Notes: generated from the sequence alone by a model not told the origin. A DNA stretch of 64,000 nucleotides from an uncultured Eubacteriales bacterium (GCA_964641455.1 CAZXLH010000009.1:1534-65533); one strand, 5' to 3'. Positions 9,187-44,762 are shown, counted from the stretch's first letter. Program-made: numbers and translations.

Positions 9187-9288
9187 GCCAACTTGTTTTT
9201 AATACCTAATGGTTAAGTGCAATTAAGTGTTACTATTCATGTAGGTTTGCGTATTACTTATTGTAAAATGCATAAAGGAGGAACGAGC

Positions 9289-9483
9289 TTGTCTAAAAAA
9301 TTGTACCGCTCAAAAACCAAAAGAATGGTATCAGGTGTATGCGGAGGGCTTGGAGAGTATTTCGATATAGATGAAACCATATTCCGCCTCGGTGTAGCCT
9401 TCATCACGTGTATAACAGCCATAATTCCAGGAGTTTTATTTTACCTGGCAGCATCTATCATAATACCTGAAAGCCCTGAATGA
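9289..9483 (+). CDS. PspC-domain small membrane protein
   Basis: TTG start after AAGGAGG plus 7-nt spacer gives MSKKLYRSKTKRMVSGVCGGLGEYFDIDETIFRLGVAF... (64 aa), the canonical PspC-domain N-terminus followed by a TM helix. The listed ORF start at 9217 is likely too long. Confidence 0.7.
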   Translation: MSKKLYRSKTKRMVSGVCGGLGEYFDIDETIFRLGVAFITCITAIIPGVLFYLAASIIIPESPE

Positions 9484-9529: not shown

Positions 9530-9808
9530 TCAGTCAATAAGTTGTCCGGCAATAACAAAACACATTAGCATAATGATATCGAAGGCAGCAGCGATGTAAA
9601 CATTGCTCCCGCCTTTTACAGCCCAGGCCCAACTTCCAAAAAAGCAAGTTAAATATATAATGCTAAGCCACCTATTTATTTTCCTGTGTCTTTGCCAAAC
9701 AGCCATCTTCTCATCCCACGACATTTGCTCCCATTGGGGAGCCTCCCATATAGGAGGCTTCAGCCTAAGCCACCTTCTCAGTTCCCAAAGCCAACCATCA
9801 GGTTTCAA
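9530..9808 (-). CDS. small hypothetical membrane protein (Trp/Arg-rich N-terminus, 2 TM helices)
   Basis: 92-aa ORF whose start overlaps the stop of the upstream 469-aa gene by 11 nt, i.e. co-operonic; no recognisable family. Confidence 0.4.
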   Translation of the reverse strand: MKPDGWLWELRRWLRLKPPIWEAPQWEQMSWDEKMAVWQRHRKINRWLSIIYLTCFFGSWAWAVKGGSNVYIAAAFDIIMLMCFVIAGQLID

Positions 9809-11207
9809 AACGAAACACCTCTAGATTAGCCTGAGGAACGGTTACCAGGCGCCCATCACCAAGCCTAACCTTGGCAACTTCAACTACAGCCTCACATTCT
9901 ATTTGCTCTGGCTTATCCGGTACATGCTCCACTGTACCCCACAAGCCAAAATATGGCGGCCTGGTGCACCTTACCCTATCTCCTTGATTCACCTGCGCCA
10001 GCATCGCCACAGGCAAACCGCTTGCCTCATCAGACACTAACGATATCGCCGGGCTTTTATGTGCAGCTTCCAAGTCCTCAATTTGGCTGCATATGATAAC
10101 CTCAGGCCTTACTACTCCTGCCCTTATTTGAGTGGTACCGTCAATGGAAGCAATTCTTCCTTCATTACCTGCAAGTATGTTCCATGCTTCACGGCTCATG
10201 GAAATCTTGCCGAAACCTTCGAGAAGAATAATTGTGAAATCTATATCCTCCTGGCCTGTTAGCCCCACATTGATTTCTTTGCCAAGAATACGAACCAAAT
10301 CAAGTTGGTTCATGCCTCCGGTAATCAGGCCCAAAGCGCCTTTTTCTATGGCTTCCTGCACCGATTCAAATGAAGCGAAACTACCACATGCCAGGATCTT
10401 GCCCTCGACACTCTCATCTAACCTGTCATGTCTAAGGGGTTCTTCCGGAGTGTCAGATAATATCATCAATTCGCCAAAGCGTTCACGGCCAATTCCAAAT
10501 ACGCCTTGAATATACGCTCCTTCCGAATCAATCACAGCACCATAATGATCAATGATTTCGCTGACTTTCCCGGATACGTGAGCAAGTACATCGGTATGCC
10601 TTATGGGTCTTACTATTGTAATAGTGCCTGTAAGAGTACAGATCCTCTCGACAATTCCGCTAATAGGCGCATAGACAAAGTCTGTGTGCCATCCGGTTGT
10701 GGCAATAATCTTACCTTCGTAGACAAAGTCACCTTCCCTAACCGTAGTATACATTCTTAAAAAGCGGGGCCGTACTCCCAATTTAGAAGCAGCCGCTACA
10801 ATACTCATTGGTTTTGCCGAACGTGGATCTTCACGTATTACAATTCGGCCCTGGGTTCTGGAAATATATTCAATGACCCCATCACACGGAGATCTAACTT
10901 CTATGATTTCAGACCAAAAGTTTTTCTGGTATCTGGCTAATACTTCACCGGATTTAACAACATCACCTTGCTCTTTAATTAATACTTGGTCGACAAGCTC
11001 AGGCTCTGTCCTTTGCTTGAGTTCCGCCCTCAAATCTACAACATATGGGTTTCCCTTAACAAACTCGGCTTTTGCAATTACAGTGTCAGGGGAAACCACA
11101 TCGCCTTCTTGAACCAAAACCTCACCCGGAGTGGGCAGTTTCCGCTCTTTGCGAATAGTTGCCCTCTCTAATACCTTAAGTGTGGATAGCAAAGCCATCA
11201 TTGTCAC
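9798..11207 (-). CDS. hypothetical protein, partner of GlmL/MutL-like ATPase (possible N-terminal barrel-sandwich hybrid-like segments, KOW-like C-terminus)
   Basis: 469 aa; 5-nt gap from the upstream MutL-like gene; no family recognised by eye; segments GEVLVQEGDVVSPDTVIAKAE and GDVVKSGEVLARYQ resemble biotinyl/lipoyl hybrid motifs. Confidence 0.5.
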   Translation of the reverse strand: MTMMALLSTLKVLERATIRKERKLPTPGEVLVQEGDVVSPDTVIAKAEFVKGNPYVVDLRAELKQRTEPELVDQVLIKEQGDVVKSGEVLARYQKNFWSEIIEVRSPCDGVIEYISRTQGRIVIREDPRSAKPMSIVAAASKLGVRPRFLRMYTTVREGDFVYEGKIIATTGWHTDFVYAPISGIVERICTLTGTITIVRPIRHTDVLAHVSGKVSEIIDHYGAVIDSEGAYIQGVFGIGRERFGELMILSDTPEEPLRHDRLDESVEGKILACGSFASFESVQEAIEKGALGLITGGMNQLDLVRILGKEINVGLTGQEDIDFTIILLEGFGKISMSREAWNILAGNEGRIASIDGTTQIRAGVVRPEVIICSQIEDLEAAHKSPAISLVSDEASGLPVAMLAQVNQGDRVRCTRPPYFGLWGTVEHVPDKPEQIECEAVVEVAKVRLGDGRLVTVPQANLEVFRFET

Positions 11208-11211
11208 CTCC

Positions 11212-13002
11212 TCATAGATTCTTTTTTAAGATACTTGACGGATAGGCGTCAAGGGCCTCGTACCAGCCGATAAGAGATGATCTCATAACGCTCTTGTCAC
11301 CGAAAAATACAAGGGGCCTTCCTCGTCCATCTAAAATCAACCCTGTTACACCCTTAACAAGTTTGCCTGAAATAGGTTTTCCAGGCCCAAAACCCAGATC
11401 GAATCGCCTGTCAGGGACAGCTTCAAATGCAGTATCTCCCAGATCATCTACATCCACTATCTGCAAATCGCCTGCGACAATATCGAAACTGTTATTTCCG
11501 GCTGTGACCCGGCCGATAGACGTACCCGGCGGAACCTCAGGCCCTACCGGTGCGATACAAGTTCCAAGGGGAATTAAAGTTTCTGTTTCCATGATCTCTA
11601 CAGCTGCATCCTTGTCAATGTCCATAAGCACACCCATATAGGGCAGCAAAAATCGGCTATCGACAAACAAGCCGGTAATCCCTTCAGGCTGCAGCCCATC
11701 CAAAAGTATCATGGCTGCCTGATTGCGCCTGGGTGCATATGAAAGCACTCCGCCTGTGCCAACCAACACCTTAACCTTCATCATGTCTACAAGTGTTTGG
11801 CCTGAAGCATCTTGGTAAAATATATCTCCTGCACTGCGCTGTTGCTGAACTCCCTTGAGCCCACGTATAAGCGACTTGTGATGTTCAAGTGAAAGCCTTA
11901 ACGCTTCTTTGCACAGTGCCTGCTCTAGCATAAGTTCCTCAAAAGTCTGCGGCAAACCTGCAGGCCTTATCATCTTGTTGAAGTTCCAGTTCCTCACAAA
12001 ATTTTCATCAGAGTCAAACGGCAACCACCTTAGCACAAGTTCAGGAGTAGCTTCGCTTAAAACATTTCCCATACTGTAAGACATTCCAAGATTTGCCGAG
12101 ACGGTTCGATAGAACTTGGAATCTATCACTGAAAATACGTCTGTGGTAGCTCCGCCTACGTCAACAGCCAAAACATCGCCTTGAACTTTTTGTGCCAGGT
12201 AAATTAATGCATCGCCAACAGCTACGGGAGTAGGTTTCACATTGCCCTGGGCCCAGGACAGCACTGTGTTGTAACCCGGAGCATGCATCATTACATGCTC
12301 CAAAAACAAGTTATGGATCTGGTTTCTTGCAGGGCCAAGCACTTCTTTTTCAAGTACCGGCCTTATATTTTCAGCAAACGAAACTTCCATTGCTCCTTCG
12401 AAAAGCTTATCAACCAGGCTCCTGGCTTCAACATTGCCTGCAAAAATTACAGGCATCTTGAACTCCTTGCCAAACCTAGGTTGAGGATTGGCCATAGCCA
12501 CCATTTCAGCTACAGCGGCAACTTCTGAAATATTGCCATCGTCAGTGCCGCCTGTAATCAGAACCATGTCAGGCCTTATACGCTTAACTGCATCTATCTT
12601 CTCAATTACACTTCGGGGATCATCAAGGGCAATGACATCAGATACAATTGCCCCGGCACCCAATGCAGCTCTATGGGCTGATTCAGCAGTAATTTCTTCC
12701 ATTAGGCCGGTCACTACCATTTGCAGCCCGCCACCGGCGCTTGAAGTAACAACAAAAACGTCTACACCTGACTTTTGATGTGCAGGAGTTACCAAATGCG
12801 CTCCATCCAAGATTTTTACATCTGTTTGACTCTGCAGTTTTAAAAGGGCATTTCTAAGCCCAATCATTACGTCCAAATGTGGGGTTTCAACAGTTGTGGG
12901 AGATACAGCTTTCGCCTGCAAAACCCAACCTTGCTCTTGCTTCTCAAACAGCACTGTCTTGGTGGTAGTGCTACCTATATCTGCAGCAAGAATTCTATAC
13001 AC
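11212..13002 (-). CDS. GlmL/MutL-family (glutamate-mutase-reactivase-like, ASKHA fold) ATPase with about 130-aa C-terminal extension
   Basis: 596 aa; DIGSTTTK, SSAGGGLQMVV, ITGGTDDGN, PVIFAGNVEAR and DVGGATTDV align with the OraF-like paralog at 37987-39336 (EIGSTTT, SSAAGGLSMSV, LAGGVDYGE, PVIYAGNVAAR, DVGGATVDV). Confidence 0.6.
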   Translation of the reverse strand: MYRILAADIGSTTTKTVLFEKQEQGWVLQAKAVSPTTVETPHLDVMIGLRNALLKLQSQTDVKILDGAHLVTPAHQKSGVDVFVVTSSAGGGLQMVVTGLMEEITAESAHRAALGAGAIVSDVIALDDPRSVIEKIDAVKRIRPDMVLITGGTDDGNISEVAAVAEMVAMANPQPRFGKEFKMPVIFAGNVEARSLVDKLFEGAMEVSFAENIRPVLEKEVLGPARNQIHNLFLEHVMMHAPGYNTVLSWAQGNVKPTPVAVGDALIYLAQKVQGDVLAVDVGGATTDVFSVIDSKFYRTVSANLGMSYSMGNVLSEATPELVLRWLPFDSDENFVRNWNFNKMIRPAGLPQTFEELMLEQALCKEALRLSLEHHKSLIRGLKGVQQQRSAGDIFYQDASGQTLVDMMKVKVLVGTGGVLSYAPRRNQAAMILLDGLQPEGITGLFVDSRFLLPYMGVLMDIDKDAAVEIMETETLIPLGTCIAPVGPEVPPGTSIGRVTAGNNSFDIVAGDLQIVDVDDLGDTAFEAVPDRRFDLGFGPGKPISGKLVKGVTGLILDGRGRPLVFFGDKSVMRSSLIGWYEALDAYPSSILKKNL

Positions 13003-13437
13003 GGTACTCCCCTCCTTGCCTTTACCAAAGTATTAAACCTTATGTTTGAGGAGTTTATGGATTTAGATATGCGGAAATATATGTTTTATTAATATTGCAT
13101 CAACAGAAAAGGCCGGATTCTTTGTTATAACAGCAGCCCATTGGGGCCCTGTCTTTGGTCTGTTAGTCAAAATTCTACACAATTGCCAAAATTCCTTCTT
13201 GGCCAAATAATACAATACCTCTATATAGTATATGAGCCAAATTTATAATCTTGAAAGATTTCACTTACTGAAGCCAAACTCTATGTTAGTATCCAAAAGA
13301 CCCACGCAGAATGTTTAATCGTCTTTATCAGTTGTACAATCAAGACTTTCCCAAGCCAATATTGGCAAAAGGCCCTTTAGTAGTTGTCACACAATTTAAC
13401 GAGTGATAAACTCTTTAAAATACTCTTATGAATTTAA

Positions 13438-34469: not shown

Positions 34470-35489
34470 CTATGTCCACACTGCGCCCACAATATCTAAA
34501 CCTCTGTGGCATTTTGGGCAAGTTCCCTCACAAAGATAAGCCCCTTCGAGTTCAAGAGTTCCCCTTTCCAAAAGAAGTTCTCCGCATTGGGGGCACAGAG
34601 TATCCGCATAGCCTTTTTTCCAGGCATTTCCGATATACACATAGTCAAGTTTCTCCCTGGCTATTTCGCGGAGCCTTTCAAGTGAAGCAAGGGACGTAGG
34701 CGGCCTGTAATGCCTGTATGCAGGAAAGTAGCGAGAAAGATGCAACGGAATACCCGGATCAATATCGCTTAGCCACCCTGCAAGCCCCTTGATATCTTCA
34801 CCTTTGTCGTTTTCTCCGGGCACAACCAGGTAGGTTATCTCGACCCATGTGCCAGCATCAAAAGCTGTTGCTACTGTGTCCAACACAGGCTCTATTCTAC
34901 CTCCGGCAATTCGTCGGTAAAAATCCCCATGCCAGGCTTTTACATCAACATTCATTGCATCAATTAGCGGCAATAGTTCACTCAATGCTTCTTTTCCTAT
35001 GTAGCCGTTTGTTACCAGCACATTTGCAAAGCCTTGAGTTTTTGCTTCTTCAGCACACTCTTTTACAAACTCATACCAAACTGTAGGCTCGTTGTACGTG
35101 TAAGCCATACCAACTGTATTAGGGTACCGTTCCTTGTAAGAAACGCAAGTATCAACTGCTTGCTTTGGACTGAGCATTGTACAAAGAGGAGTCATCTGTG
35201 AGATCTGCCAATTCTGACAAAACCTGCATGTGAAATTACACCCGTAAGTGCCCAAAGAAAGCACAAGTGAGCCTGGGTGAAAGTGAAACAAAGGCTTTTT
35301 TTCCACCGGGTCTAACCCAATAGAAGTAACCTGCCCATAGTTAACGGAATACAAACGCCCGCCACGATTCTCCCTGACTTTGCAGGCTCCTCGCTTGCCC
35401 GGTAGAATAACACACATATTAGGGCAAAGGTTACACCTTACTTGCGCTTTGGTAAGCGGCTCCCAGCAGAGTGCCTCTTTCACACACAA
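34470..35489 (-). CDS. amrS: radical SAM enzyme, AmmeMemoRadiSam-system type (PFL-activase-like)
   Basis: 339 aa; CNFTCRFCQN radical SAM motif; N-terminal CxxC (CNLCPNMC) and C-terminal Cys pairs; directly downstream of the AMMECR1 fusion gene. Confidence 0.6.
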   Translation of the reverse strand: MCVKEALCWEPLTKAQVRCNLCPNMCVILPGKRGACKVRENRGGRLYSVNYGQVTSIGLDPVEKKPLFHFHPGSLVLSLGTYGCNFTCRFCQNWQISQMTPLCTMLSPKQAVDTCVSYKERYPNTVGMAYTYNEPTVWYEFVKECAEEAKTQGFANVLVTNGYIGKEALSELLPLIDAMNVDVKAWHGDFYRRIAGGRIEPVLDTVATAFDAGTWVEITYLVVPGENDKGEDIKGLAGWLSDIDPGIPLHLSRYFPAYRHYRPPTSLASLERLREIAREKLDYVYIGNAWKKGYADTLCPQCGELLLERGTLELEGAYLCEGTCPKCHRGLDIVGAVWT

Positions 35490-35508
35490 ACCTCCTCATT
35501 TTACTGTT

Positions 35509-36921
35509 TTAACGATAGCGCGATACAGTAAATCGGTAAATCTTAACCTGAGTGTCAAAGGGGCTAATGCCTGCCTTTCTCTTGGCAATGGAAAGCTGTT
35601 CCCTAACTGTATTGACACCTGGTAAATCGGGCAATAACAGCCCTTTCCTGTTTCCTTTTACGCAAATAACGCCATACTTCCTTGGATCAAGTTCTGAAAA
35701 GCCCTTTACTTCCACAGGATCAGACAGAATATCCACTGAATAATCCAACATCTCAAGTTCATCCAAAGTAACAGGTGAAAAACGAGGGTCCCTTGTTGCA
35801 GCGCTAACCGCATTTTGCATTATTTCTTGGGCAATGCTTCCGGTAGTAGGTTCCGTTGTTCCTATACAGCCTCTAAGGTCGCCTTCTTTATGGATAGATA
35901 CAAACACTCCGGCTTTCTTGCAAAACTCACTGGGAACAGGGCCTTCAACGGCAGGCAACCTGCCTTCGCTCACGTAATGCTCAACTGTGGTTCGTGCCAG
36001 CGATGCCGGAAAACTCTCGTCTTGACGTATCCGGCTGATAGTTTTCTGCCTCTTTAACCTAATGGCCTGAATACGTGATTCACTCCGGCTCCATCTCACA
36101 GGCCTGAACAAAGCGACGCAGTAGCCTACTCCAAACGGCCCTTCGTAAGATAAAACCTGTGGTTCAACCTGGGCCCCGTCGAGAGCCCCAAGCATAATTG
36201 ATATGGGCCTTAAACCACACTCTCCTGCATTTTCAATCAGATTCGATGGCATACACACAACCTCTTCAACGGAAAATGCTCTAAGTTTGTCAACGAGAAA
36301 CTCATCAAACACCTTGCCTTGTTCGTTGTATCCTGCCGGAGCGCCTGGCTGTAGCCTATGGGAAAGGTCTCCTGAAGCAAGAACGCCTATTTTACGCCCA
36401 ACACGTAAAGCCGCTTCGGCAATCTGCTTTCCAAAGAGATAAAGATCAAAGTAAGGTAAGAATCCTATATTTACTACTGCGATTTGCGCGTTAAACCCGT
36501 GTTTTTGCAGGTAATACATGGGAACAAGAACGCCGTGATCCAGCTTTGATTCAATTCCGTAACGACCAAATCTACGTTTGTCCAACGTTACAACCTTTAC
36601 AGGAGACTTCCGGCTGCCATCTTCTATTGCCCTTATGAGTTCCAGGTCGTTTTTGAATCGAACACCTATGCCACCGGCGCCAAACTGCCTAAGATCCCCT
36701 TCAAGGGTTTCCGTAACCGGTATTGAAACCGCATCGGAAAATACAGGCCCATGAGGCGTAATTACCACCAACGTTTGGATCCCGGCGCTGGAAAATACCT
36801 TGCCTATTTGATCCATAGCGTTTATGGTCTCAATTGCATCACGTTCCTCACCGCGTCCTACTTCCGGAATAATTATGGGCGGATGGGGTGCAAGCCCCGC
36901 CAGAACTAAATTATCAGGCAC
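35509..36921 (-). CDS. fusion protein: LigB/Memo-like (class III extradiol dioxygenase fold) domain + AMMECR1 domain (AmrB-AmrA-like)
   Basis: 470 aa; N-terminus LAGLAPHPPIIIPE...VVITPHGPVF (LigB/Memo-type); C-terminus GVFVSIHKEGDLRGCIGTTEP...ATRDPRF (AMMECR1); start overlaps the orr stop by 8 nt. Confidence 0.6.
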   Translation of the reverse strand: MPDNLVLAGLAPHPPIIIPEVGRGEERDAIETINAMDQIGKVFSSAGIQTLVVITPHGPVFSDAVSIPVTETLEGDLRQFGAGGIGVRFKNDLELIRAIEDGSRKSPVKVVTLDKRRFGRYGIESKLDHGVLVPMYYLQKHGFNAQIAVVNIGFLPYFDLYLFGKQIAEAALRVGRKIGVLASGDLSHRLQPGAPAGYNEQGKVFDEFLVDKLRAFSVEEVVCMPSNLIENAGECGLRPISIMLGALDGAQVEPQVLSYEGPFGVGYCVALFRPVRWSRSESRIQAIRLKRQKTISRIRQDESFPASLARTTVEHYVSEGRLPAVEGPVPSEFCKKAGVFVSIHKEGDLRGCIGTTEPTTGSIAQEIMQNAVSAATRDPRFSPVTLDELEMLDYSVDILSDPVEVKGFSELDPRKYGVICVKGNRKGLLLPDLPGVNTVREQLSIAKRKAGISPFDTQVKIYRFTVSRYR

Positions 36922-37990
36922 TTTCTAAGACCTCCTTGGTTACAAAAGGAGATGTGCTAGCCTTTAACAAAGCACTGTACGACATTGTGAACTCAAGAAT
37001 GCTGCCTACACCTATGGAACACTCAGCATCTTCTACATCGCAAATCAGGTGATCTGACGAAGCGCCCAGGATTTCGATGCCCCTTGCGCAGGGAGCAATC
37101 CCTGACGGATCGATATCCTGCTTACCTACTGAAACAATGGCCCGGCTTCTAACCCCTCTGTCCTCAAAAACCGGAACATCTCCGAAAGCGTCCTGCCCGA
37201 TTTCGCCAATGGGCTTAGATGGTTTGCGCTGCACCTCAATTACCTCTGCCTTTAACATAAAAGTATCATTGAAGCAGCCAGGTATAGGTTGCCTTTCTAC
37301 AGCTTCACGGCCAAGCAGAATTGCCTCGCCTATCCTGAGTTCTGTAATACCCAAAGTCATTTGCTTATCCAGGGCCAGCCTGAGATTTGCAGACGTTCCT
37401 CCTGATACCCGCTTGAGTTTTCGCCCTATACGCTGCTCAATTGCATTTTTCACCTCAATAAGAAGGGTCATCTTTTCAACTGTAGGAATTACTCCTCCGT
37501 AACAGGCCAAATTGGTGCCTATTCCTACTAAGTCAATCCCCTCTGTTTGATCCATTTCAAAAGCAACCTGAGGCGCTTGCTCAACCATGACACCTTCCCT
37601 AAGATCGCCAAGATCAACCATTAATACTACTTTGTGCATTTGGCCGGTTTTGCTTGCAGCCTCTCCCAAAAGTTTGACAGTATCTACTTCAGAATTAAGG
37701 CTGGTGTCTGCATACATCACAGTTTGCACGCACTGGGAAGGCCCGGGAGCCCTAAGCAAGACCGTCTCACCTTTGTAGCCCCACTCCCTTAGTTTTATAA
37801 GATTGTCAATTCGGGAATCCCCAATTGCATCTGCACCGCCGGATATCATAGCTTCTACTACAGCCAAGTTGGCACAAGTGCCTTTGGCCACGCCTACCAA
37901 GCGTATACCCTGTTTCAGAAGCATATTTGACAGTGTTTCAGTGTTATGCTCAATTTTTGCTTTGTTTATTGTAAGCAGCGGATAAGTCAT
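36914..37990 (-). CDS. orr: ornithine racemase (alanine-racemase-fold, PLP)
   Basis: Alanine racemase N-domain (VGVAKGTCAN...) plus C-domain; ATG at 37988-37990 forms ATGA overlap with oraF stop (listed ORF start 38062 likely too long); operon context. Confidence 0.7.
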   Translation of the reverse strand: MTYPLLTINKAKIEHNTETLSNMLLKQGIRLVGVAKGTCANLAVVEAMISGGADAIGDSRIDNLIKLREWGYKGETVLLRAPGPSQCVQTVMYADTSLNSEVDTVKLLGEAASKTGQMHKVVLMVDLGDLREGVMVEQAPQVAFEMDQTEGIDLVGIGTNLACYGGVIPTVEKMTLLIEVKNAIEQRIGRKLKRVSGGTSANLRLALDKQMTLGITELRIGEAILLGREAVERQPIPGCFNDTFMLKAEVIEVQRKPSKPIGEIGQDAFGDVPVFEDRGVRSRAIVSVGKQDIDPSGIAPCARGIEILGASSDHLICDVEDAECSIGVGSILEFTMSYSALLKASTSPFVTKEVLESA

Positions 37991-39336
37991 GATTCTAACC
38001 CCAAACTCTGTAACAGTAATGCCCTGGCATGCCCGGGATACTTTTTTGACAGCACCCCGCACGAAGCCATAATGTACTGTCTGTCCAACAGAATGCCGGC
38101 CGCCTTTGGATAAAGTTCCCTGCCATAACCCTGGCCCACAAGTCTTGAAAGAACCTGCCTGCCGCCGGGTAACCGGGTAAAAGGGCCTCCGGTGCCAATA
38201 ATGGTTTTGACACTTGACAGGTCTTTACCCGAAGCTACCGTCATCCTGCCTTGTGGCCCGTATAGATGTTTTATTGTCCCCACATGTCGCTTAAATGCTA
38301 TGTCACAAGCTATGTCTCTTAGATAAGACACAAGTTTCACGTGGTGTTCATGTTCCGGTATAACCTGCAAATTCTCCAAGGCCGGCTCTGCATCAAACCC
38401 TAACTCGAAATTGATTCTGTCTTTAACCAGCATGGCAATGTTTCGGGCGTTAACATGAATTCCCAAATCGCCTTCAACAGTTCTTTTTGCCCAAGGCTCA
38501 GGAGCCTCGAGGATAGCCTGGATTTCAGGGCTTCCTTTCGCCACTGAATGAACGTCAACAGTGGCTCCTCCAACATCGAGAGCGCACAGGTCGCCGAGTA
38601 CAGACCACAAAAGTTTGCACGACTCCATTACCGCTCCCGGCGTAGGCATTATGGGGCCATTTACCATACTCCTAATCTTATCCATTCCCGGAGCAGTTAC
38701 TATGTGCTCTTCAAAAACTTCTTGAATTACTTTCCTGGCCGGCTCAACAACCAGTTCATCTACCTTAGGATAAACATTGTCTACAAAATAAGTATCGATT
38801 TGTGCACGCTCAAAGATTTCCCCTATCTGGTTTCGGGCTGCAACGTTACCTGCGTATATTACCGGACAGGCCAAATTACATCCGGCAATCATCTGTGCAT
38901 TCCTTATGGCCGTATCCTTTTCACCATAATCCACTCCGCCTGCCAGCAAAATGATCTTAGGGTTTACCCGTTTCAACTGTTCAATATCAGCTGATGTCAT
39001 CTCACCTGCAGTAACCATTTTGATCACTGCGCCTGCGCCTAAAGCAGCCTCTTTGGCAGCTCTTACCGTCATGTCATAAACTAACCCATGAACGCTCATG
39101 GAAAGCCCGCCGGCCGCACTTGAGGCTGCCATCATCAGATCCCAACCAAGGTCCCTTACCCCAAGATTTAAGGCAAGATTGTCTATGGCCGACGAAAGTG
39201 CCACTGTAACGTCGCCGGGATCTTCCATAGTACAGGATATACCCTGTCCTAACACACGAGCATTGCCTTCAAGCCCGATAGCGTTTACTACAGTTGTAGT
39301 GCTGCCTATTTCAGCTACAAGTACATCGATTTTCAT
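37987..39336 (-). CDS. oraF: GlmL/MutL-like putative D-ornithine aminomutase reactivase
   Basis: MKIDVLVAEIGSTTT..., SSAAGGLSMSV, DVGGATVDV; ATG at 39334-39336 forms ATGA overlap with oraE stop. Confidence 0.65.
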   Translation of the reverse strand: MKIDVLVAEIGSTTTVVNAIGLEGNARVLGQGISCTMEDPGDVTVALSSAIDNLALNLGVRDLGWDLMMAASSAAGGLSMSVHGLVYDMTVRAAKEAALGAGAVIKMVTAGEMTSADIEQLKRVNPKIILLAGGVDYGEKDTAIRNAQMIAGCNLACPVIYAGNVAARNQIGEIFERAQIDTYFVDNVYPKVDELVVEPARKVIQEVFEEHIVTAPGMDKIRSMVNGPIMPTPGAVMESCKLLWSVLGDLCALDVGGATVDVHSVAKGSPEIQAILEAPEPWAKRTVEGDLGIHVNARNIAMLVKDRINFELGFDAEPALENLQVIPEHEHHVKLVSYLRDIACDIAFKRHVGTIKHLYGPQGRMTVASGKDLSSVKTIIGTGGPFTRLPGGRQVLSRLVGQGYGRELYPKAAGILLDRQYIMASCGVLSKKYPGHARALLLQSLGLES

Positions 39337-41582
39337 TGATCCCTTGCCCTTTTTCCTTTCCCTTGGGCCCAAAGCGCTTTGCGTTTTTCGACCAGGAACG
39401 ACGCCACATGAAGCCCTGTGGTCCCCCTGCCGAATCCTGCATCCAACCCTGCTTCAACGGCCAGATCGTTTGTAACCTGAGTGCCTCCGCCAACCAAAAT
39501 GAATCTGTCTCTTACACCTTTTTCTATAGATAGTTGGGCTAGCCGCTCCATGTTTTTTCTGTGTATGTCTGCATGGCTTATGATTGTAGATATCAATATA
39601 GCATCGGCATCTTCTTCAATGGCGGCATTTATCATTTTCTCAATTGGCACTGAAGTTCCAAGGTATACAGCCTCAATGCCAAAACCTTCAATGCCTCCGT
39701 GCTTTATGTCTATAATCTCCCGCATACCCACTGAATGCTCATCTTCGCCTACGGTACCGCAAACAACTTTCATTGGATGAGTAGATATCTCTTGCCTAAT
39801 TTCATCTTCTGACAACATTTTCGGCTTCTCAGGAATCTCAAGTGTGGTTTTATCAATGGAAAACGGTACTATGCCCTTAACCTCAACTAAAGTACCTTCT
39901 GAAGGGTGAATAACTCTCTTGTGAATCACTTCAGAGTCTTGCAAGCCCAGTTTTTCAGCAATTTCCAGTGACGCATATTCTGCTATTTCTTCTTTTTCGG
40001 GAATGAATATGGTCATGGTAATGCAACCGTCACCTGCCCACTCTACCTCAGGGCAAATTGAGTCTTCTGTAAACTTACGGCTCAATGTTTCAAGCCTCTT
40101 GTTCACATTATCCTCAGGATCTAATTCATCAATGTAGACGATTTTGCCTCTTTGGCACAAAGTGCATCCTTCTATTAAATCACAATGCTTTGAAAGCCCT
40201 TCAGGCAAACTATTGTACCCAAAATGACTGCATACAGGAGCCATGTAATCTTTGTCTCGCTTGACTATGCTCCCTGCTGCAATGCCGCCGTTTGGATCTC
40301 TGGCAATTCCATCGCCTTTTCTCTCAGGGTATTGTCCTGAGTCAACGAAAAAGCCACGGGCTACTGCATTGAAATAGCCTACTTCTTTGATTTCCTCCAG
40401 GAAAAGCACAGCCCTTTCTGCAATTTCTCTTACCTTCGTTGGAAGAGCTCCTTCTTTCTTAAGTTCAACCATTTGTGTCAGGCCATCCATTCCCAGAAGG
40501 GCCTGTTTAGCAGTTTCAACAGCCGCCACATTATTGTAATGCCACGGTACATTACGGCCTTCATCAGGAGTGATGGTGCTTTGCACGTCTACAGACGTAA
40601 GCCTCGATACCAAGAGATTAAGAACATGAGTTACAGTGGCTTCTCTTGTATCTGACTCTATGTACCTGGTATTCTGTTGCGCCCGAATCTTATAGTCAGA
40701 AAACAGCCATCTTAAGCACACTGCGTAAGGAAGATCATATGAAAGTGCAGGAGCAGGCGGCGCAGTAGGCGGCACTGATGAAAGAGCAATATTCTCTTTC
40801 TTCATACCAATCATTTCAGAGAAAACCGAATTTATGGCGTGCTGTACCAAAAGTTCGGGCATGACCTTCCACGCCTCTCTGGCAGTTGCATTGGCATTAT
40901 GAGCTCCGTCTATTTGCAACATGCCGCGTGAAGCCATTATTCTCTTGGCAACAGCAGCATCCACAAAAGATCTCTGCATATTTACATTTCTGTAAAGCAC
41001 ATTATACTGGGGATCCTGGTGAGCGCCGTTAACTCCCTCTTCTGCAAACATCACGGCTATTTCAGGGCCTGCTACCCCCGATACGTAAGAGTGAAAGTTT
41101 ATGGGCCTTCCAACTTCATCCTCGATCAAGTCCAGGGCCTTTCTGGTAGCACGCACTTGCTTTCTGGTAATCGGAACCCCGCCGATTCCTTCAGGGGTTC
41201 CTTCAAGAAGGCCATCCATATGGCTTTGGCCGGCAGTTCTGATAACCATCATATGATCAGCGCCGTGCCAAGCGGCCATCCGCATTCGCCTCAAGTCATC
41301 TTCGAACCGCCCTGAAGCAATTTCCGTAGTGATCACACAATCAGGTTGTGGATCTATATCGGCAAAATATCTCGCTGCCGGCAAAGGGACTGACTTTTTA
41401 AGCGGCTCAGACGTTTCCAAATACTTAAAGGGGCCCTCTTGGCCAGGCCCTTTGGTACGCCATGTCCACCCAAAGCGCCTGGGGCGATAGCCTTCAAGGC
41501 CTTGAAGAATTTGATTTATATCCATTTTTTGATCAGCGCTTAATGTATAGGTTCCTGTATTTGGTGTTTGCTGTTGTTTCAT
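39333..41582 (-). CDS. oraE: D-ornithine 4,5-aminomutase E (large, PLP + B12-binding) subunit
   Basis: 749 aa; ITTEIASGRFEDDLRRMRMAAWHGADH; C-terminal cobalamin-binding domain with DxHxxG (EDEHSVGMRE). Confidence 0.75.
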   Translation of the reverse strand: MKQQQTPNTGTYTLSADQKMDINQILQGLEGYRPRRFGWTWRTKGPGQEGPFKYLETSEPLKKSVPLPAARYFADIDPQPDCVITTEIASGRFEDDLRRMRMAAWHGADHMMVIRTAGQSHMDGLLEGTPEGIGGVPITRKQVRATRKALDLIEDEVGRPINFHSYVSGVAGPEIAVMFAEEGVNGAHQDPQYNVLYRNVNMQRSFVDAAVAKRIMASRGMLQIDGAHNANATAREAWKVMPELLVQHAINSVFSEMIGMKKENIALSSVPPTAPPAPALSYDLPYAVCLRWLFSDYKIRAQQNTRYIESDTREATVTHVLNLLVSRLTSVDVQSTITPDEGRNVPWHYNNVAAVETAKQALLGMDGLTQMVELKKEGALPTKVREIAERAVLFLEEIKEVGYFNAVARGFFVDSGQYPERKGDGIARDPNGGIAAGSIVKRDKDYMAPVCSHFGYNSLPEGLSKHCDLIEGCTLCQRGKIVYIDELDPEDNVNKRLETLSRKFTEDSICPEVEWAGDGCITMTIFIPEKEEIAEYASLEIAEKLGLQDSEVIHKRVIHPSEGTLVEVKGIVPFSIDKTTLEIPEKPKMLSEDEIRQEISTHPMKVVCGTVGEDEHSVGMREIIDIKHGGIEGFGIEAVYLGTSVPIEKMINAAIEEDADAILISTIISHADIHRKNMERLAQLSIEKGVRDRFILVGGGTQVTNDLAVEAGLDAGFGRGTTGLHVASFLVEKRKALWAQGKGKRARDQ

Positions 41583-41947
41583 GGACTCGTCTCACCTCCA
41601 AGACTCCCTGCAAGTTCATCCCATCCTATTCCTTTGGCAAGTTGCTTACCTGCCGAAAGGTAGCCTGCATTTGTAGCCTTAGCGTATTTGAGCACCAGGT
41701 TGCCTGCGCCTTTGCCAAGCAAGCCTCGCTTTTCTGCCAATGAAACAATAGCCTTGGCTTCCAAGCTTGAAAACCCCATACGCAAAAGAACCGATCGTTC
41801 AATCGAAGGTGAAGTATGGGTGTATGCAAGATCATAAAGAGGTTTGACTATTTCATGGGCAAGATCCCAGAATTCCTCTTTGAGCTCTTGGTCGGTCAAA
41901 CCTGCCAAATACTTTCGCCTTTGCTCAAAATCACATGCCCTTTGCAC
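41579..41947 (-). CDS. oraS: D-ornithine 4,5-aminomutase S (small) subunit
   Basis: 122 aa; position between ortB and oraE; ATGA overlap with oraE. Confidence 0.7.
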   Translation of the reverse strand: MQRACDFEQRRKYLAGLTDQELKEEFWDLAHEIVKPLYDLAYTHTSPSIERSVLLRMGFSSLEAKAIVSLAEKRGLLGKGAGNLVLKYAKATNAGYLSAGKQLAKGIGWDELAGSLGGETSP

Positions 41948-43365
41948 TAAACCTCCACCCCCATGTCTTTGAGGACCGAAACGACAAACGCCGGATTTGC
42001 CTTTGCATCTTCAGCCAGGAACTCCAGTTCTTCCTCTGTAACTTTCGTGACTCTGTTTCTGTTTACGGCATTGCGAATGTAAGATCTGCGCATCCTGTCA
42101 AGATCCATTTCAGTGATACCAACTTGTGAAAAATGCTCAGGAATTACTATGGCCTTTCCCGGAACGTTTTGCTCCGGATCTCCGCGCCAAACGGTAATTC
42201 CGTTCTTGCGGGCAAAGTCCAGCTGAGCATTGGGATGTTTTCCGGCTCCTGTATATTCAGTTTCCTGAACTACTACAATTTCATCTTCAGGAAGTTCTCT
42301 GGCAAGAGGAATAGCCGCAGCAAGTGACGTATTTCCTGCAGGCCCTCTTTCCATGCCTTCAATCTGTGCCAGGGCCTCGGTTACGTAAAACACTTCACCC
42401 TGGGTAACGGTAACATACCTGTCCAAATACCTAAGCGGCCTTGCAGCATTCTTGGGAACGTCAGTCCTGTCAGGCCAGGTAGCGAAAGGTACTCCAAACC
42501 CTGTATGTCCCGTGGTAAATGACTTTTTATTGAAATCATTGTCAGAGGCCATATGAAGGCCTGAAAGATCTACGCTGGCTCCTATTATCTTTGAATCTTT
42601 TGCTCCCGCCTTGAGCGCACCTCTGGCTGTGCCTGTTACGTTACCGCCTCCTGCATGGGTTACCACAACATAGGCAGGATCTTTTCCGTATCTCTCTCTC
42701 ACCTGCTCCACTAATTCGTACCCAAGAGTCTCTACCCCTGAGATGCCAAAGGGGCTATATAAAGATGCGTTGAAATACCCTGTCTCCTCCAGCAAGATAA
42801 GAGCCGAATAAAAAAGTTCAGGGCCGACTGTTAACTGTACAACTTCAGCGCCTAAGGCTTCACATTTTCTTGATTTTTCTATTATTTCAGGTTGCCCAAC
42901 ATGATGCGAATCGAATACTTCTTGCACAATAATGCAACCCAAGTTCATCATAGCTGCTTGCGACGCAACCGCAGCCCCATAGTTTCCGCTGGTAGCTGCA
43001 AGCACTCCGGGATAACCGAGTTGCTTTGCATGGTATACCGATACACTTGCCCTTCTGTCCTTGAAACTTCCGGAAGGATTACTCGCTTCATCCTTAACCA
43101 AAATTCGGGCTCCGTAACCTTTCCGTGAAGTTTTCCTTACGAGCCGGGTTATGTTTTTAAGTTCAAGAAGAGGTGTACTCCCAACGCCTGTTTGCTTTTG
43201 AATCTGAGTTACTTTTTCCAGAGAATACCCGGCTTTTTGCATCATGCCTTCATAATCAAAAGCAATTTTGGACTGAATGAACTCTTCGTATTCAATACCC
43301 AAAGCTTTTTTCATGATTTCACCGCGACGAGCCATTACCGCTTTGTAAGATAAGTCACGAGACAT
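41947..43365 (-). CDS. ortB: 2-amino-4-ketopentanoate thiolase beta subunit (PLP, Trp-synthase-beta fold)
   Basis: 472 aa; PLP-lysine region GSFKDRRASV, SGNYG glycine loop. Confidence 0.7.
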   Translation of the reverse strand: MSRDLSYKAVMARRGEIMKKALGIEYEEFIQSKIAFDYEGMMQKAGYSLEKVTQIQKQTGVGSTPLLELKNITRLVRKTSRKGYGARILVKDEASNPSGSFKDRRASVSVYHAKQLGYPGVLAATSGNYGAAVASQAAMMNLGCIIVQEVFDSHHVGQPEIIEKSRKCEALGAEVVQLTVGPELFYSALILLEETGYFNASLYSPFGISGVETLGYELVEQVRERYGKDPAYVVVTHAGGGNVTGTARGALKAGAKDSKIIGASVDLSGLHMASDNDFNKKSFTTGHTGFGVPFATWPDRTDVPKNAARPLRYLDRYVTVTQGEVFYVTEALAQIEGMERGPAGNTSLAAAIPLARELPEDEIVVVQETEYTGAGKHPNAQLDFARKNGITVWRGDPEQNVPGKAIVIPEHFSQVGITEMDLDRMRRSYIRNAVNRNRVTKVTEEELEFLAEDAKANPAFVVSVLKDMGVEV

Positions 43366-43366
43366 G

Positions 43367-43681
43367 TCAATTCCCCTCCTTCAACATGGCTCTTAATTCT
43401 TGGCCAATGTTTGAAAGTTCAGGGATACATGGCCCGAATGTATGAGTATATCCGGGGTTGACTCTGGTGAGAGTACCCTTAACTACACGGTTAGCGGGAG
43501 TGTGTATTTCAACCTCCTGCCCAATCTTTCCAGGCGTAAGGGCCCAACCTTTTATCCAGCACTCCAAAGGAACCTTTTTAGTGTCATCAGGAACGTCAGG
43601 AGAACGTTCGCCGGATTCCAATACAATATAGTGAATCTCAACCCACTCGCCCTTTTTACATGCTTCTGCCAAAATTACCAC
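43367..43681 (-). CDS. ortA: 2-amino-4-ketopentanoate thiolase alpha subunit
   Basis: 104 aa; 1-nt gap from ortB; conserved operon position. Confidence 0.65.
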   Translation of the reverse strand: MVILAEACKKGEWVEIHYIVLESGERSPDVPDDTKKVPLECWIKGWALTPGKIGQEVEIHTPANRVVKGTLTRVNPGYTHTFGPCIPELSNIGQELRAMLKEGN

Positions 43682-43736
43682 CTCAATATCGGTACTTGAA
43701 GTTAACCAGGTATATCATATTGAACCTTACTGCCAA

Positions 43737-44762
43737 CTATTGCTTAGAGGTGACACCTGTAATTCCACGCGGGACAGGTAAATCAGCCATAGTCAAAAGG
43801 CCGGGGGACCCCTTAAGCACAAGAGGGATCATATTAACTGCAATAGCCATAGTTCCGGTTCCTCCCGGTATTTCAGGTTCTATAGCTACATTAATAGGTG
43901 GGTCTCCCTCGATCTTAATATAATCACCTGTCTTGACTCCTTCCGCTTCAGGGCATACTTGCTGAGGATGCTCAAGCAGTATCACTTCTTTGCCTTTACA
44001 ATACGCCCTCGCCGTGTGGCGACAACCTGCCACATTTCCAGGAGCAACCTTGACATGATCGGTAACCCGCTCAACATTTGTGAAGATAGGCAGCCTATCT
44101 TCAATTATTTCATCAATTTCCCAACCCAGCGCCTTACCTATCAACATTATCGATTGTTTAAATCCAACATGGCCTACAATATCTCCAGAGGCCAATCCTT
44201 TTTGAAACCCCGCGGGAGTTATGCCCACACCTTGGGTTTGCATAACGGTAGGGCCAAACGGGGCCAAATCGTTTACTCTCTTTCCGTGGATACGTCTTAT
44301 TTCCCTGCATATGCCTGTAAGTGAAACAATCAGCGTATCTAAAACGAAACCGGGGTTAATGCCTGTTCCTAAAACAGTCTTCCCCTGTTTACGGGCTATG
44401 GAGTCTATCCGGTTAGCCAATTCCTCTGATGCCACCCATGGATAAGCCATTTCCTCTGCAATCGTTATTACATCAGTGTTTTCTTCAAGAGCATATTTTA
44501 TTTGGGGAAATACGTCTTTAACGAAAGACGCTGTGACCACCAGAGCAATATCCGGTTCATGGCTGAAACCTTCTCTCAAATCGTCAGTCACCTTGACACC
44601 AATCGAGCTTGAGCCCAGAAGTTCGCCAACATCTTTTCCTACCTTGTCCGGATGATTATCGATAGCTGCCACAATTTGCATGTCTTTCTTTTCAAGCAGC
44701 ATAGATGCCATACCGCTTCCCATAGCCCCAAGCCCCCACAAAAGGACCTTTGTGTTTGCCAT
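43737..44762 (-). CDS. ord: 2,4-diaminopentanoate dehydrogenase
   Basis: 341 aa; Rossmann GLGAMG; DapB-like architecture; first gene of the ornithine oxidative degradation operon. Confidence 0.7.

Follow-up and report, generated by a model that had tools for sequence, protein, structure and literature searches.

On the minus strand of a 64,000-nucleotide stretch of DNA from an uncultured Eubacteriales bacterium (GCA_964641455.1, CAZXLH010000009.1:1534-65533; this whole stretch is called the window), positions 9530-13002 hold three tightly packed open reading frames (ORFs) of 596, 469 and 92 amino acids (aa), encoding a long member of the MutL/GlmL ATPase family, a partner protein and a small membrane protein. 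The long MutL is a distinct form within PF13941 and the ASKHA fold and is not a GlmL or OraF equivalog, the partner is an undescribed family assembled from known folds, and the pairing of the two is obligate, ancient and widespread. What is new in the operon is the obligate partner of its GlmL-like ATPase and the genomic context in which the two are found. It is proposed, with a probability of roughly 45%, that the pair forms a cytoplasmic module of two proteins which is driven by ATP and works with membrane proteins, and that it is not a dedicated reactivase of adenosylcobalamin (AdoCbl)-dependent mutases. The original prediction, made from the sequence of the window, had taken the module for an orphan oddity, which it is not; the module belongs, as one paralog, to an undescribed two-gene family that is both ancient and very large.

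The long MutL is encoded at 11212..13002 (minus strand, stop codon included) and begins at a GTG codon with an AAGGAGG ribosome-binding site upstream. The five MutL/OraF motifs that had been claimed for it are all present in the translation: DIGSTTTK (residues 8-15), SSAGGGLQ (87-94), GGTDDGN (151-157), PVIFAGNVEAR (184-194) and DVGGATTDV (281-289). The Pfam model MutL (PF13941) aligns with residues 4-473 at 388.2 bits (gathering cut-off 27), placing the protein within that family, and it fails the narrower NCBIfam models, scoring 236.3 bits against a cut-off of 475 for accessory_GlmL (NF040745), 219.1 against 600 for ornith_Or-4/OraF (NF040744) and 175.8 against 204.05 for glmL_fam (TIGR01319). 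As a positive control, a second MutL paralog in the window passes both the Or-4 model (609.7 bits) and glmL_fam (286.7 bits); the two paralogs have 31% identity over about 460 residues and the family motifs in common. Long forms from Scalindua, Bathyarchaeota and locus L028 score 216-230 on NF040745 and 150-169 on TIGR01319, and all of them fail. A GlmL equivalog is expected beside glmS/glmE and an OraF beside oraS/oraE; the long MutL has neither, its neighbours being hpt, a PspC-domain gene (pspC), guaB and purine genes. The long form is also consistent in size, as all 120 best matches, out of at least 8,000 scored candidates, are about 600 aa in length, one of them truncated at 515 aa. Many long MutLs (e.g., P0124, P0155 and P0210) carry the pipeline names 'glutamate mutase L' or 'methylaspartate mutase'. 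These names look like systematic over-annotation, because the four long MutLs tested fail every GlmL-family cut-off and no examined locus has a mutase as neighbour.

An AlphaFold model of the long MutL (predicted local distance difference test, pLDDT, of 88) contains an ASKHA core, an inserted flavodoxin-like domain and, at the C-terminus, a small domain rich in beta structure that also has two helices. The core has the RNase-H-like lobes of the ASKHA fold with its phosphate-1 (DxGxT), phosphate-2 (DxGGxT) and adenosine (GGxxS) motifs, and the columns of all three are invariant in 74 long MutLs; from this invariance it is likely that the protein turns over nucleotide and hydrolyses ATP. The flavodoxin-like alpha/beta insert (12376..12759, minus strand; approximately residues 82-209) holds SSAGGGLQ, GGTDDGN and PVIFAGN. 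The C-terminal extension, which is specific to the long form (11215..11583, minus strand; residues 474-596), had been put at about 130 aa in the original prediction and amounts to 123 aa beyond the Pfam match. It is conserved from Bacillota to archaea, with tblastn alignments reaching approximately query residue 590, and includes an invariant ILDGRGRPL motif (residues 556-564). Profile searches found no Pfam or PDB relative of the extension, the best PDB match being a designed double-psi barrel at E = 0.4, and no PDB entry is a sequence relative of the long MutL as a whole. The ILDGRGRPL motif (window 11311-11337) faintly resembles DGIQRPL of V-type ATPase subunit A, a similarity that is not significant (E = 1.7).

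The partner gene lies at 9798..11207 (minus strand). As the longest ORF it encodes 469 aa, as originally described, and its GTG codon is separated from the MutL stop by 4 nucleotides, where 5 had been claimed; the other positions of the three-ORF layout stand. A GAGGAGG site suggests that translation truly starts at one of two ATG codons (11201 or 11198), giving a likely protein of 467 or 466 aa, and the exact 466-aa sequence is present in public data as an unnamed protein (P0001). The three ORFs are taken as real genes and not chance ORFs, since homologues are found across phyla at E = 0 to 1e-60.

Hidden Markov model scans of the partner give partial, weak Pfam matches only, namely RnfC_N (33.1 bits, cut-off 25.6), NQRA_N (24.9, cut-off 25), Biotin_lipoyl (22.9, cut-off 22.1) and KOW, and neither a Pfam family nor a solved structure covering the whole protein was found. 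The earlier view that the partner belongs to no recognisable family is therefore upheld, and its guess of hybrid barrels followed by a KOW-like C-terminus agrees with both the Pfam matches and an AlphaFold 2 model built from a 103-sequence alignment (pLDDT 93.7, predicted TM-score 0.86). The model shows two tandem barrel-sandwich-hybrid (BSH, lipoyl-like) domains at approximately residues 20-125 and 130-232 (10506..11144, minus strand), a swivelling beta/beta/alpha domain at approximately residues 233-372 (10086..10505, minus strand) and a C-terminal, SH3-like KOW barrel at approximately residues 401-467 (9801..10001, minus strand). The swivelling domain, a fold which serves as the moving element in phosphoenolpyruvate (PEP)-utilising enzymes and DdrA, holds the most conserved motifs (GIGxExxGEL, EGFG and TQIRAGVxRPE), and the KOW barrel matches the folds of Spt5 and NusG at E values down to 9e-7. 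Across the 103 sequences the invariant residues are glycines together with E240, R365, P366, N459 and E461; no Lys, His or Cys is conserved, Lys being absent even from the columns conserved at 90% or more. The make-up of the partner therefore suggests structural or mechanical domains, and not domains that would carry lipoate, biotin, phosphate or metal. Clustering of the family at 50% identity gives at least 1,220 clusters (E <= 1e-30), and neither the partner nor the long MutL has a transmembrane segment predicted from hydropathy.

Several known identities suggested by these folds were tried and rejected. The partner is not a lipoylated or biotinylated carrier, as there is no conserved Lys at the hairpin tip of the BSH domains and the Biotin_lipoyl score reflects the fold only. 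A phosphohistidine relay, as in the phosphotransferase system or in the PEP-utilising swivel with its GGxTSH histidine, is ruled out by the lack of a conserved His, and an Fe-S or redox activator resembling HgdC or RACo by the lack of a conserved Cys in either the long MutL or the partner. RnfC and NqrA match in the BSH portion alone, the full-length models giving 12-16 bits against the 246 of TIGR01945 and the 321 of TIGR01936. The combination of KOW and NGN domains by which NusG and Spt5 are recognised is not present.

Two fold searches order the fold neighbours of the long MutL differently. Foldseek places hydantoinase and acetone-carboxylase-type ATPases at the top (E = 2e-11 to 1e-7), the best being acetophenone carboxylase gamma (E = 2e-11), N-methylhydantoinase, acetone carboxylase beta and caprolactamase, followed by DdrA/GdrA, PilM and FtsA; Hydantoinase_A (19.2 bits, cut-off 22.9) and Hydant_A_N (16.6 bits) both give sub-threshold matches around the phosphate motifs. 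These matches would suit a soluble ATP-dependent enzyme, like a hydantoinase, an acetone carboxylase or a kinase, in which MutL would phosphorylate or activate a small molecule, the partner would be the second subunit and the membrane genes described below would transport a substrate or product. BSH domains are typical of carboxylases and swivelling domains of phosphotransfer enzymes, and transporters are frequent in metabolic operons. Such an enzyme is nevertheless unlikely, as the Hydantoinase_A match stays below its cut-off, no HyuB-type subunit is found, no biotin- or lipoyl-bearing Lys, phosphohistidine or metal-cluster Cys is conserved, and no metabolic enzymes recur as neighbours.

The distribution of the pair was examined in a scan of species-representative genomes, which returned at least 555 stretches encoding relatives of the partner. 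The comparison genomes are all metagenome-assembled genomes, the 80-locus samples are top-scoring matches and not random draws, and genes were located with a simple ORF caller that mis-calls high-GC loci. The closest relatives of the partner come from Ca. Fermentithermobacillaceae (75% identity), and bacterial carriers extend to other Bacillota, WOR-3, Cloacimonadota, Planctomycetota (Scalindua and Brocadiaceae), Elusimicrobia, Latescibacterota and Poribacteria, with Bathyarchaeota, Methanomethylicia and Culexarchaeia among the archaea. Where enough flank was available (66 loci), a long MutL ends within 400 nucleotides upstream of the partner on the same strand in 55; it lies 1.4 kb away in one more and is absent from the flank in the remaining 10. 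The median gap between the two genes is approximately 62 nucleotides, the pairing holds from Bacillota to Planctomycetota, Cloacimonadota and Bathyarchaeota, and it was also seen in all five distant metagenomic loci checked. Unlinked partners, found in WOR-3, Poribacteria, Hydrothermae and others, lie among housekeeping genes such as those for topoisomerase I and endonuclease IV.

The two genes have also been joined into a single ORF on two independent occasions, classic evidence for a physical complex of MutL and partner. One fusion (L050_11, 993 aa, from Cloacimonadota; L050:11929-14910, minus strand) is without both the KOW domain and the LDGRGRP motif, and the other (P0282, 995 aa; L171:2029-5016) keeps the KOW domain and has a DCRGRP variant of the motif. 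The apparent co-loss in L050_11 had suggested that the KOW barrel docks on the LDGRGRP motif of MutL, an idea that was dropped because the KOW-less partners of L172 and L174 pair with MutLs that keep the motif. Apparent fusions of 1004 aa (L048) and 928 aa (L083) proved to be wrong-frame ORFs in high-GC DNA, as did the neighbour clusters C6 and C16.

A distance tree divides the partners into three clades. Clade A is the type found in the window, with two BSH domains, and is confined to Bacillota; clade B is its sister, also from Bacillota, and supplies the first pair of the tandem double pairs. A universal short partner of approximately 375 aa, with one BSH domain and present in both bacteria and archaea, makes up clade C. 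The tandem double pairs occur in several Bacillota (L010:6116-13852; L018:6125-13013; L019-L022 and L040) in the order of a 630-aa MutL and 450-aa partner followed by a 620-aa MutL and 373-aa partner. In the complete genome of Ca. Fermentithermobacillus carboniphilus (CP062796), a double pair is present together with a pair of the window type, giving three paralogous pairs.

The original prediction offered two functional alternatives, the first being that the pair reactivates a radical or B12 enzyme to which it is not linked. In such a role the pair would be a trans-acting chaperone, similar to GlmL or DdrAB, that frees damaged cofactor from an AdoCbl or other radical enzyme encoded elsewhere. 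Membership in PF13941 is in its favour, as short members of that family lie beside glutamate and ornithine mutases, the corrinoid activator RACo is an ASKHA fold neighbour of MutL, and the organism of the window does use a B12 mutase. The sole functional statement found in the literature describes MutL/GlmL as a reactivating chaperone by analogy with DdrAB, citing diol dehydratase work (PMC4682846). The function of GlmL and OraF themselves has been assigned by analogy only, and no paper mentioning PF13941, TIGR01319 or DUF6754 was found in the literature searched.

The genomic context argues against this role. The absence of an adjacent B12 enzyme that was claimed for the pair in the window is confirmed there and extends to 90 loci searched, none of which gave an OraE-like or B12-binding-domain match; no B12 enzyme appears in the precomputed Pfam annotation of other gene-called loci, and no mutase is present among the recurrent neighbour clusters. 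An Rfam search of the window had no match at E <= 1, and in eight diverse loci no match reached the gathering threshold, so no cobalamin riboswitch is present in the window region or in these eight. The long MutL fails the GlmL, OraF and TIGR01319 cut-offs, a canonical OraF already stands beside the organism's mutase, and the conserved neighbours of the pair are membrane proteins. To our knowledge, characterised reactivases are encoded beside their clients (ddrAB, gdrAB and eutA). The partner has not turned out to be a subunit of a known enzyme, nor was the pair found beside a B12 enzyme elsewhere. A trans-acting reactivase is therefore improbable, and the evidence agrees better with the second alternative of the original prediction, namely that this ASKHA family has here a new function. 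A part in anti-phage defence was also considered, and none of the three proteins matches any PADLOC model.

In place of mutases, the pair is accompanied by membrane proteins. At least two of the neighbour clusters C3 (DUF6754), C5, C2 and C4 lie beside it in 29 of 84 loci, and a small protein, C1, is present in 35 of the 84, mostly immediately upstream of MutL. Of the four, C5 and C4 are polytopic proteins, C3 and C2 have membrane helices on either side of a soluble domain, and none has a PDB relative. Bacterial DUF6754 is placed at the cell surface by a signal peptide and an Fn3-like N-terminal domain (E = 4e-4). The association is also seen from the other side, as a reverse search from DUF6754 found the four membrane genes together in 36 of 37 loci and the long MutL and partner in 20 of 28 well-flanked metagenomic loci. 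The fusion P0282 sits inside such a DUF6754 cluster. Homology between C4 and C5, of the kind known for NqrD and NqrE, was considered and rejected as hhalign gave no signal, and C3 against C2 reached just 18% probability.

In its full form the arrangement is a cluster of seven genes, C1 (approximately 110-130 aa), long MutL, partner, DUF6754, C5, C2 and C4 (L080:5799-12652; L091:481-7281; L031, L037, L069, L073, L086 and L171), found in Planctomycetota, Bathyarchaeota, BRC1, Latescibacterota, Bacillota and many metagenome contigs. Its five accessory proteins have no described function and no solved relative. The long form thus shares an operon with four uncharacterised membrane proteins in many phyla of both bacteria and archaea. 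Other genes recur around the pair. A protein of approximately 290-315 aa with CCIDRY and FFPCQPDCPEA motifs is encoded just downstream in Bacillota and Bathyarchaeota (L018:13237-14184; L022, L075, L081 and L082), and in eight loci cluster C9, whose small membrane protein has a PH-like domain, recurs upstream. Glycine-cleavage genes (GcvT, GcvPA and GcvPB, with a GcvH-sized ORF in some) lie directly upstream of C1 or MutL in 12 loci (L036, L047, L051, L055, L067, L070, L071, L076, L079, L083, L085 and L089), several of which come from candidate phyla. This adjacency is probably inherited gene order among related candidate phyla; a functional link to glycine cleavage is disfavoured, as the partner is without a lipoyl Lys. 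Neighbours of an envelope-stress type occur in L008 (2479-4254) and L009, where MutL comes directly after genes for a HisKA_3 sensor kinase and a NarL-type regulator, an anecdotal observation.

A second membrane association is seen for long partners with two BSH domains, where the pair directly follows FtsX-type ATP-binding cassette (ABC) transporter genes in L003-L005, L016, L017 and L172, in two gene orders; in L015 the same transporter is present with two small ORFs intervening before the pair. The transporter consists of an FtsX-like protein, an ABC ATPase and a further FtsX-like protein, the arrangement of a type VII ABC system (e.g., L003:2771-9473 and L172:1-6609). FtsX-type ABC systems are mechanotransmitters and not importers. 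This counts against the soluble enzyme, as does the extracellular Fn3-like domain of bacterial DUF6754, a feature uncommon in solute transporters.

The third gene of the operon (9530..9808, minus strand; TTG start) overlaps the partner stop by 11 nucleotides and encodes the 92-aa protein, which had rightly been described as a Trp/Arg-rich membrane protein overlapping its neighbour: it contains 10 Trp and 6 Arg, with a strongly hydrophobic segment at residues 70-90 and a weaker one at residues 46-65. It has no Pfam or NCBIfam match and its exact sequence is absent from the protein collection searched; tblastn finds relatives in L011, L012, L014 and L016, and the protein is confined to a clade of the Fermentithermobacillaceae type. 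In an alignment with L011, L012 and L014, conservation covers the part upstream of an internal ATG of the ORF; the protein has a soluble stretch at its N-terminus that is conserved. Like the partner of the window, those of L011, L012, L014, L016 and L172 have an ORF for a small membrane protein after them, which in L172 is Trp-rich and 138 aa long. The suggestion that the 92-aa protein is a diverged C1 was rejected, with an hhalign probability of 0.4%.

A membrane protein with a conserved cytoplasmic N-terminal stretch encoded immediately downstream, together with the position of C1 before MutL in 35 loci, would be consistent with a scaffold of the FtsA or PilM type. The long MutL would then be mainly a nucleotide-regulated and possibly polymerising, actin-like anchor which organises an envelope machine and to this end binds the cytoplasmic tail of a small membrane protein, as PilM does with PilN, and the partner would serve as a bridge. 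This appears very unlikely. Foldseek favours hydantoinase-type and reactivase ATPases, the flavodoxin-like insert of the long MutL with its invariant Gly-rich loops is absent from FtsA and PilM, and the 92-aa protein is unrelated to C1 and limited to one clade.

The preferred reading, of a cytoplasmic module that works with membrane proteins, may be put as follows. The three genes form one operon, for what would be a two-protein module together with a small membrane protein as its possible tether. The long MutL is predicted to be the nucleotide-hydrolysing ASKHA engine, and the partner its obligate adaptor, composed of connector and moving-part folds. The partner would bind MutL probably through the clade-specific C-terminal domain of the latter, because the order of the fusions equals the gene order. 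The swivelling and BSH domains would pass on nucleotide-dependent movement, and the KOW barrel may serve as an extra docking surface which is dispensable in some members. ATP turnover would in this way impose a conformational change on membrane-embedded clients, resulting in their assembly, remodelling or energising. The action may be one of prying or of subunit exchange, as the combination of ASKHA, swivelling and flavodoxin-like domains recalls DdrAB; this lead comes from the likeness of the folds and not from membership. In clades B and C, and in what would be the ancestral and commonest form of the family, the client would be the four-protein membrane module of DUF6754 and three unnamed proteins; in the Bacillota-specific clade A it may be FtsX permeases in relatives and, in the window, the co-translated 92-aa two-helix protein.

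Several observations weigh against this reading. Foldseek places soluble hydantoinase and acetone-carboxylase subunits, DdrA and GdrA above FtsA and PilM. In 10 of the 66 genomes with enough flank, the partner has no MutL within 8 kb (L023, L049, L053, L056, L058, L059, L060, L064, L066 and L084), and approximately 30% of the well-flanked DUF6754 loci are without the pair within 10 kb. No homologue of the DUF6754 module was found in the window and no ABC transporter adjoins the operon there, so that in the window's own genome the membrane link comes from the 92-aa ORF and from relatives. The adjacency to ABC transporters in other genomes is weak evidence, as these are very common genes. A more specific proposal, possible but held with more doubt, is that the long MutL and partner are the cytoplasmic motor of an ancient and unrecognised membrane machine of bacteria and archaea with a core of C1, MutL, partner, DUF6754, C5, C2 and C4. 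In Bacillota an offshoot of this machine, represented by the window's operon, would have been rewired to an FtsX-type transporter or a small membrane protein.

Other features of the window include a promoter-like site upstream of the operon (TTGATG-16-TATATT; 13076..13103, minus strand), which is a consensus match only and tentative because such sites in the region are not above shuffled expectation. The PspC-domain gene (9217-9483, plus strand) converges on the operon and is an envelope-stress-type neighbour, again an anecdotal observation. The second MutL paralog, named oraF in the original prediction and confirmed as such by the Or-4 model, encodes 461 aa at 37987-39372 and abuts the ornithine aminomutase gene OraE (39333-41582), near a racemase and the remaining genes of the ornithine pathway. 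Positions 36914-44762 make up a complete oxidative ornithine-degradation cluster, with the racemase at 36914-38062, a pyridoxal phosphate enzyme at 41947-43365 and 2,4-diaminopentanoate dehydrogenase at 43737-44762 in addition to OraF and OraE. At 34470-36921, a radical SAM protein (34470-35489) adjoins a fused LigB/Memo-like and AMMECR1 protein (35509-36921), probably the 'AmmeMemoRadiSam' trio with two of its members fused.

Annotation pipelines treat MutL/GlmL as an accessory of B12 mutases, and these results suggest that the assumption fails for a large part of the family. The long MutL and its partner represent a large 'conserved unknown' concentrated in uncultured anaerobes, namely Bathyarchaeia, Methanomethylicia, anammox Planctomycetota, Cloacimonadota, WOR-3 and Bacillota. 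If the pair does drive a membrane machine, it would be the first ASKHA ATPase, as opposed to an ABC, AAA+ or P-loop ATPase, to power a dedicated multi-subunit membrane complex, and the names 'glutamate mutase L' and 'methylaspartate mutase' would be wrong for thousands of database entries. Solving the function of the pair could reveal a new coupling of ATP to the membrane, and the structure models, the two natural fusions and the compact seven-gene cluster make the hypothesis directly testable.

In comparing the module to known systems, the long MutL resembles GlmL and OraF in its PF13941 membership, ASKHA core, flavodoxin-like insert and Gly-rich motifs. It differs in its C-terminal domain of approximately 123 aa and in its partner, both of which short GlmL and OraF lack, in scoring below the cut-offs of three NCBIfam models, and in context, as short members adjoin mutases whereas the long form is never beside a B12 mutase in the loci fetched. 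The HyuA-type proteins (hydantoinase, oxoprolinase, and acetone and acetophenone carboxylases) provide the nearest solved folds by Foldseek; however, the TM-scores are only 0.25-0.32, the insert and C-terminal domain of MutL are not shared, and the partner has no Hydantoinase_B match. With PilM-PilN and FtsA the module has in common soluble ASKHA proteins whose genes lie beside those for small bitopic membrane proteins and larger membrane modules, but there is no sequence relation, the accessory domains are others, and the membrane proteins are unrelated to PilNOP or the divisome.

The BSH domains of the partner are shared with RnfC, NqrA and adaptors of the HlyD/YknX type, in which the domain serves as a structural connector on membrane complexes, and homologues of the partner show faint BSH_YknX-type matches. 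Unlike these proteins, the partner is without flavin, Fe-S domains, a signal peptide or a coiled-coil hairpin, and the combination of swivelling and KOW domains is unique to its family. The DdrAB and GdrAB reactivases differ from the pair in the order of domains across two polypeptides, as here the swivelling domain is on the partner and the flavodoxin-like domain is inside MutL; they show no sequence similarity to it, have no counterpart of the BSH and KOW domains, and the pair has no client B12 enzyme nearby and lies in a membrane-gene context. What the two systems do share is an ASKHA ATPase together with a swivelling beta/beta/alpha and a flavodoxin-like domain, and a common action, the ATP-driven prying-open of a client, is plausible for both.

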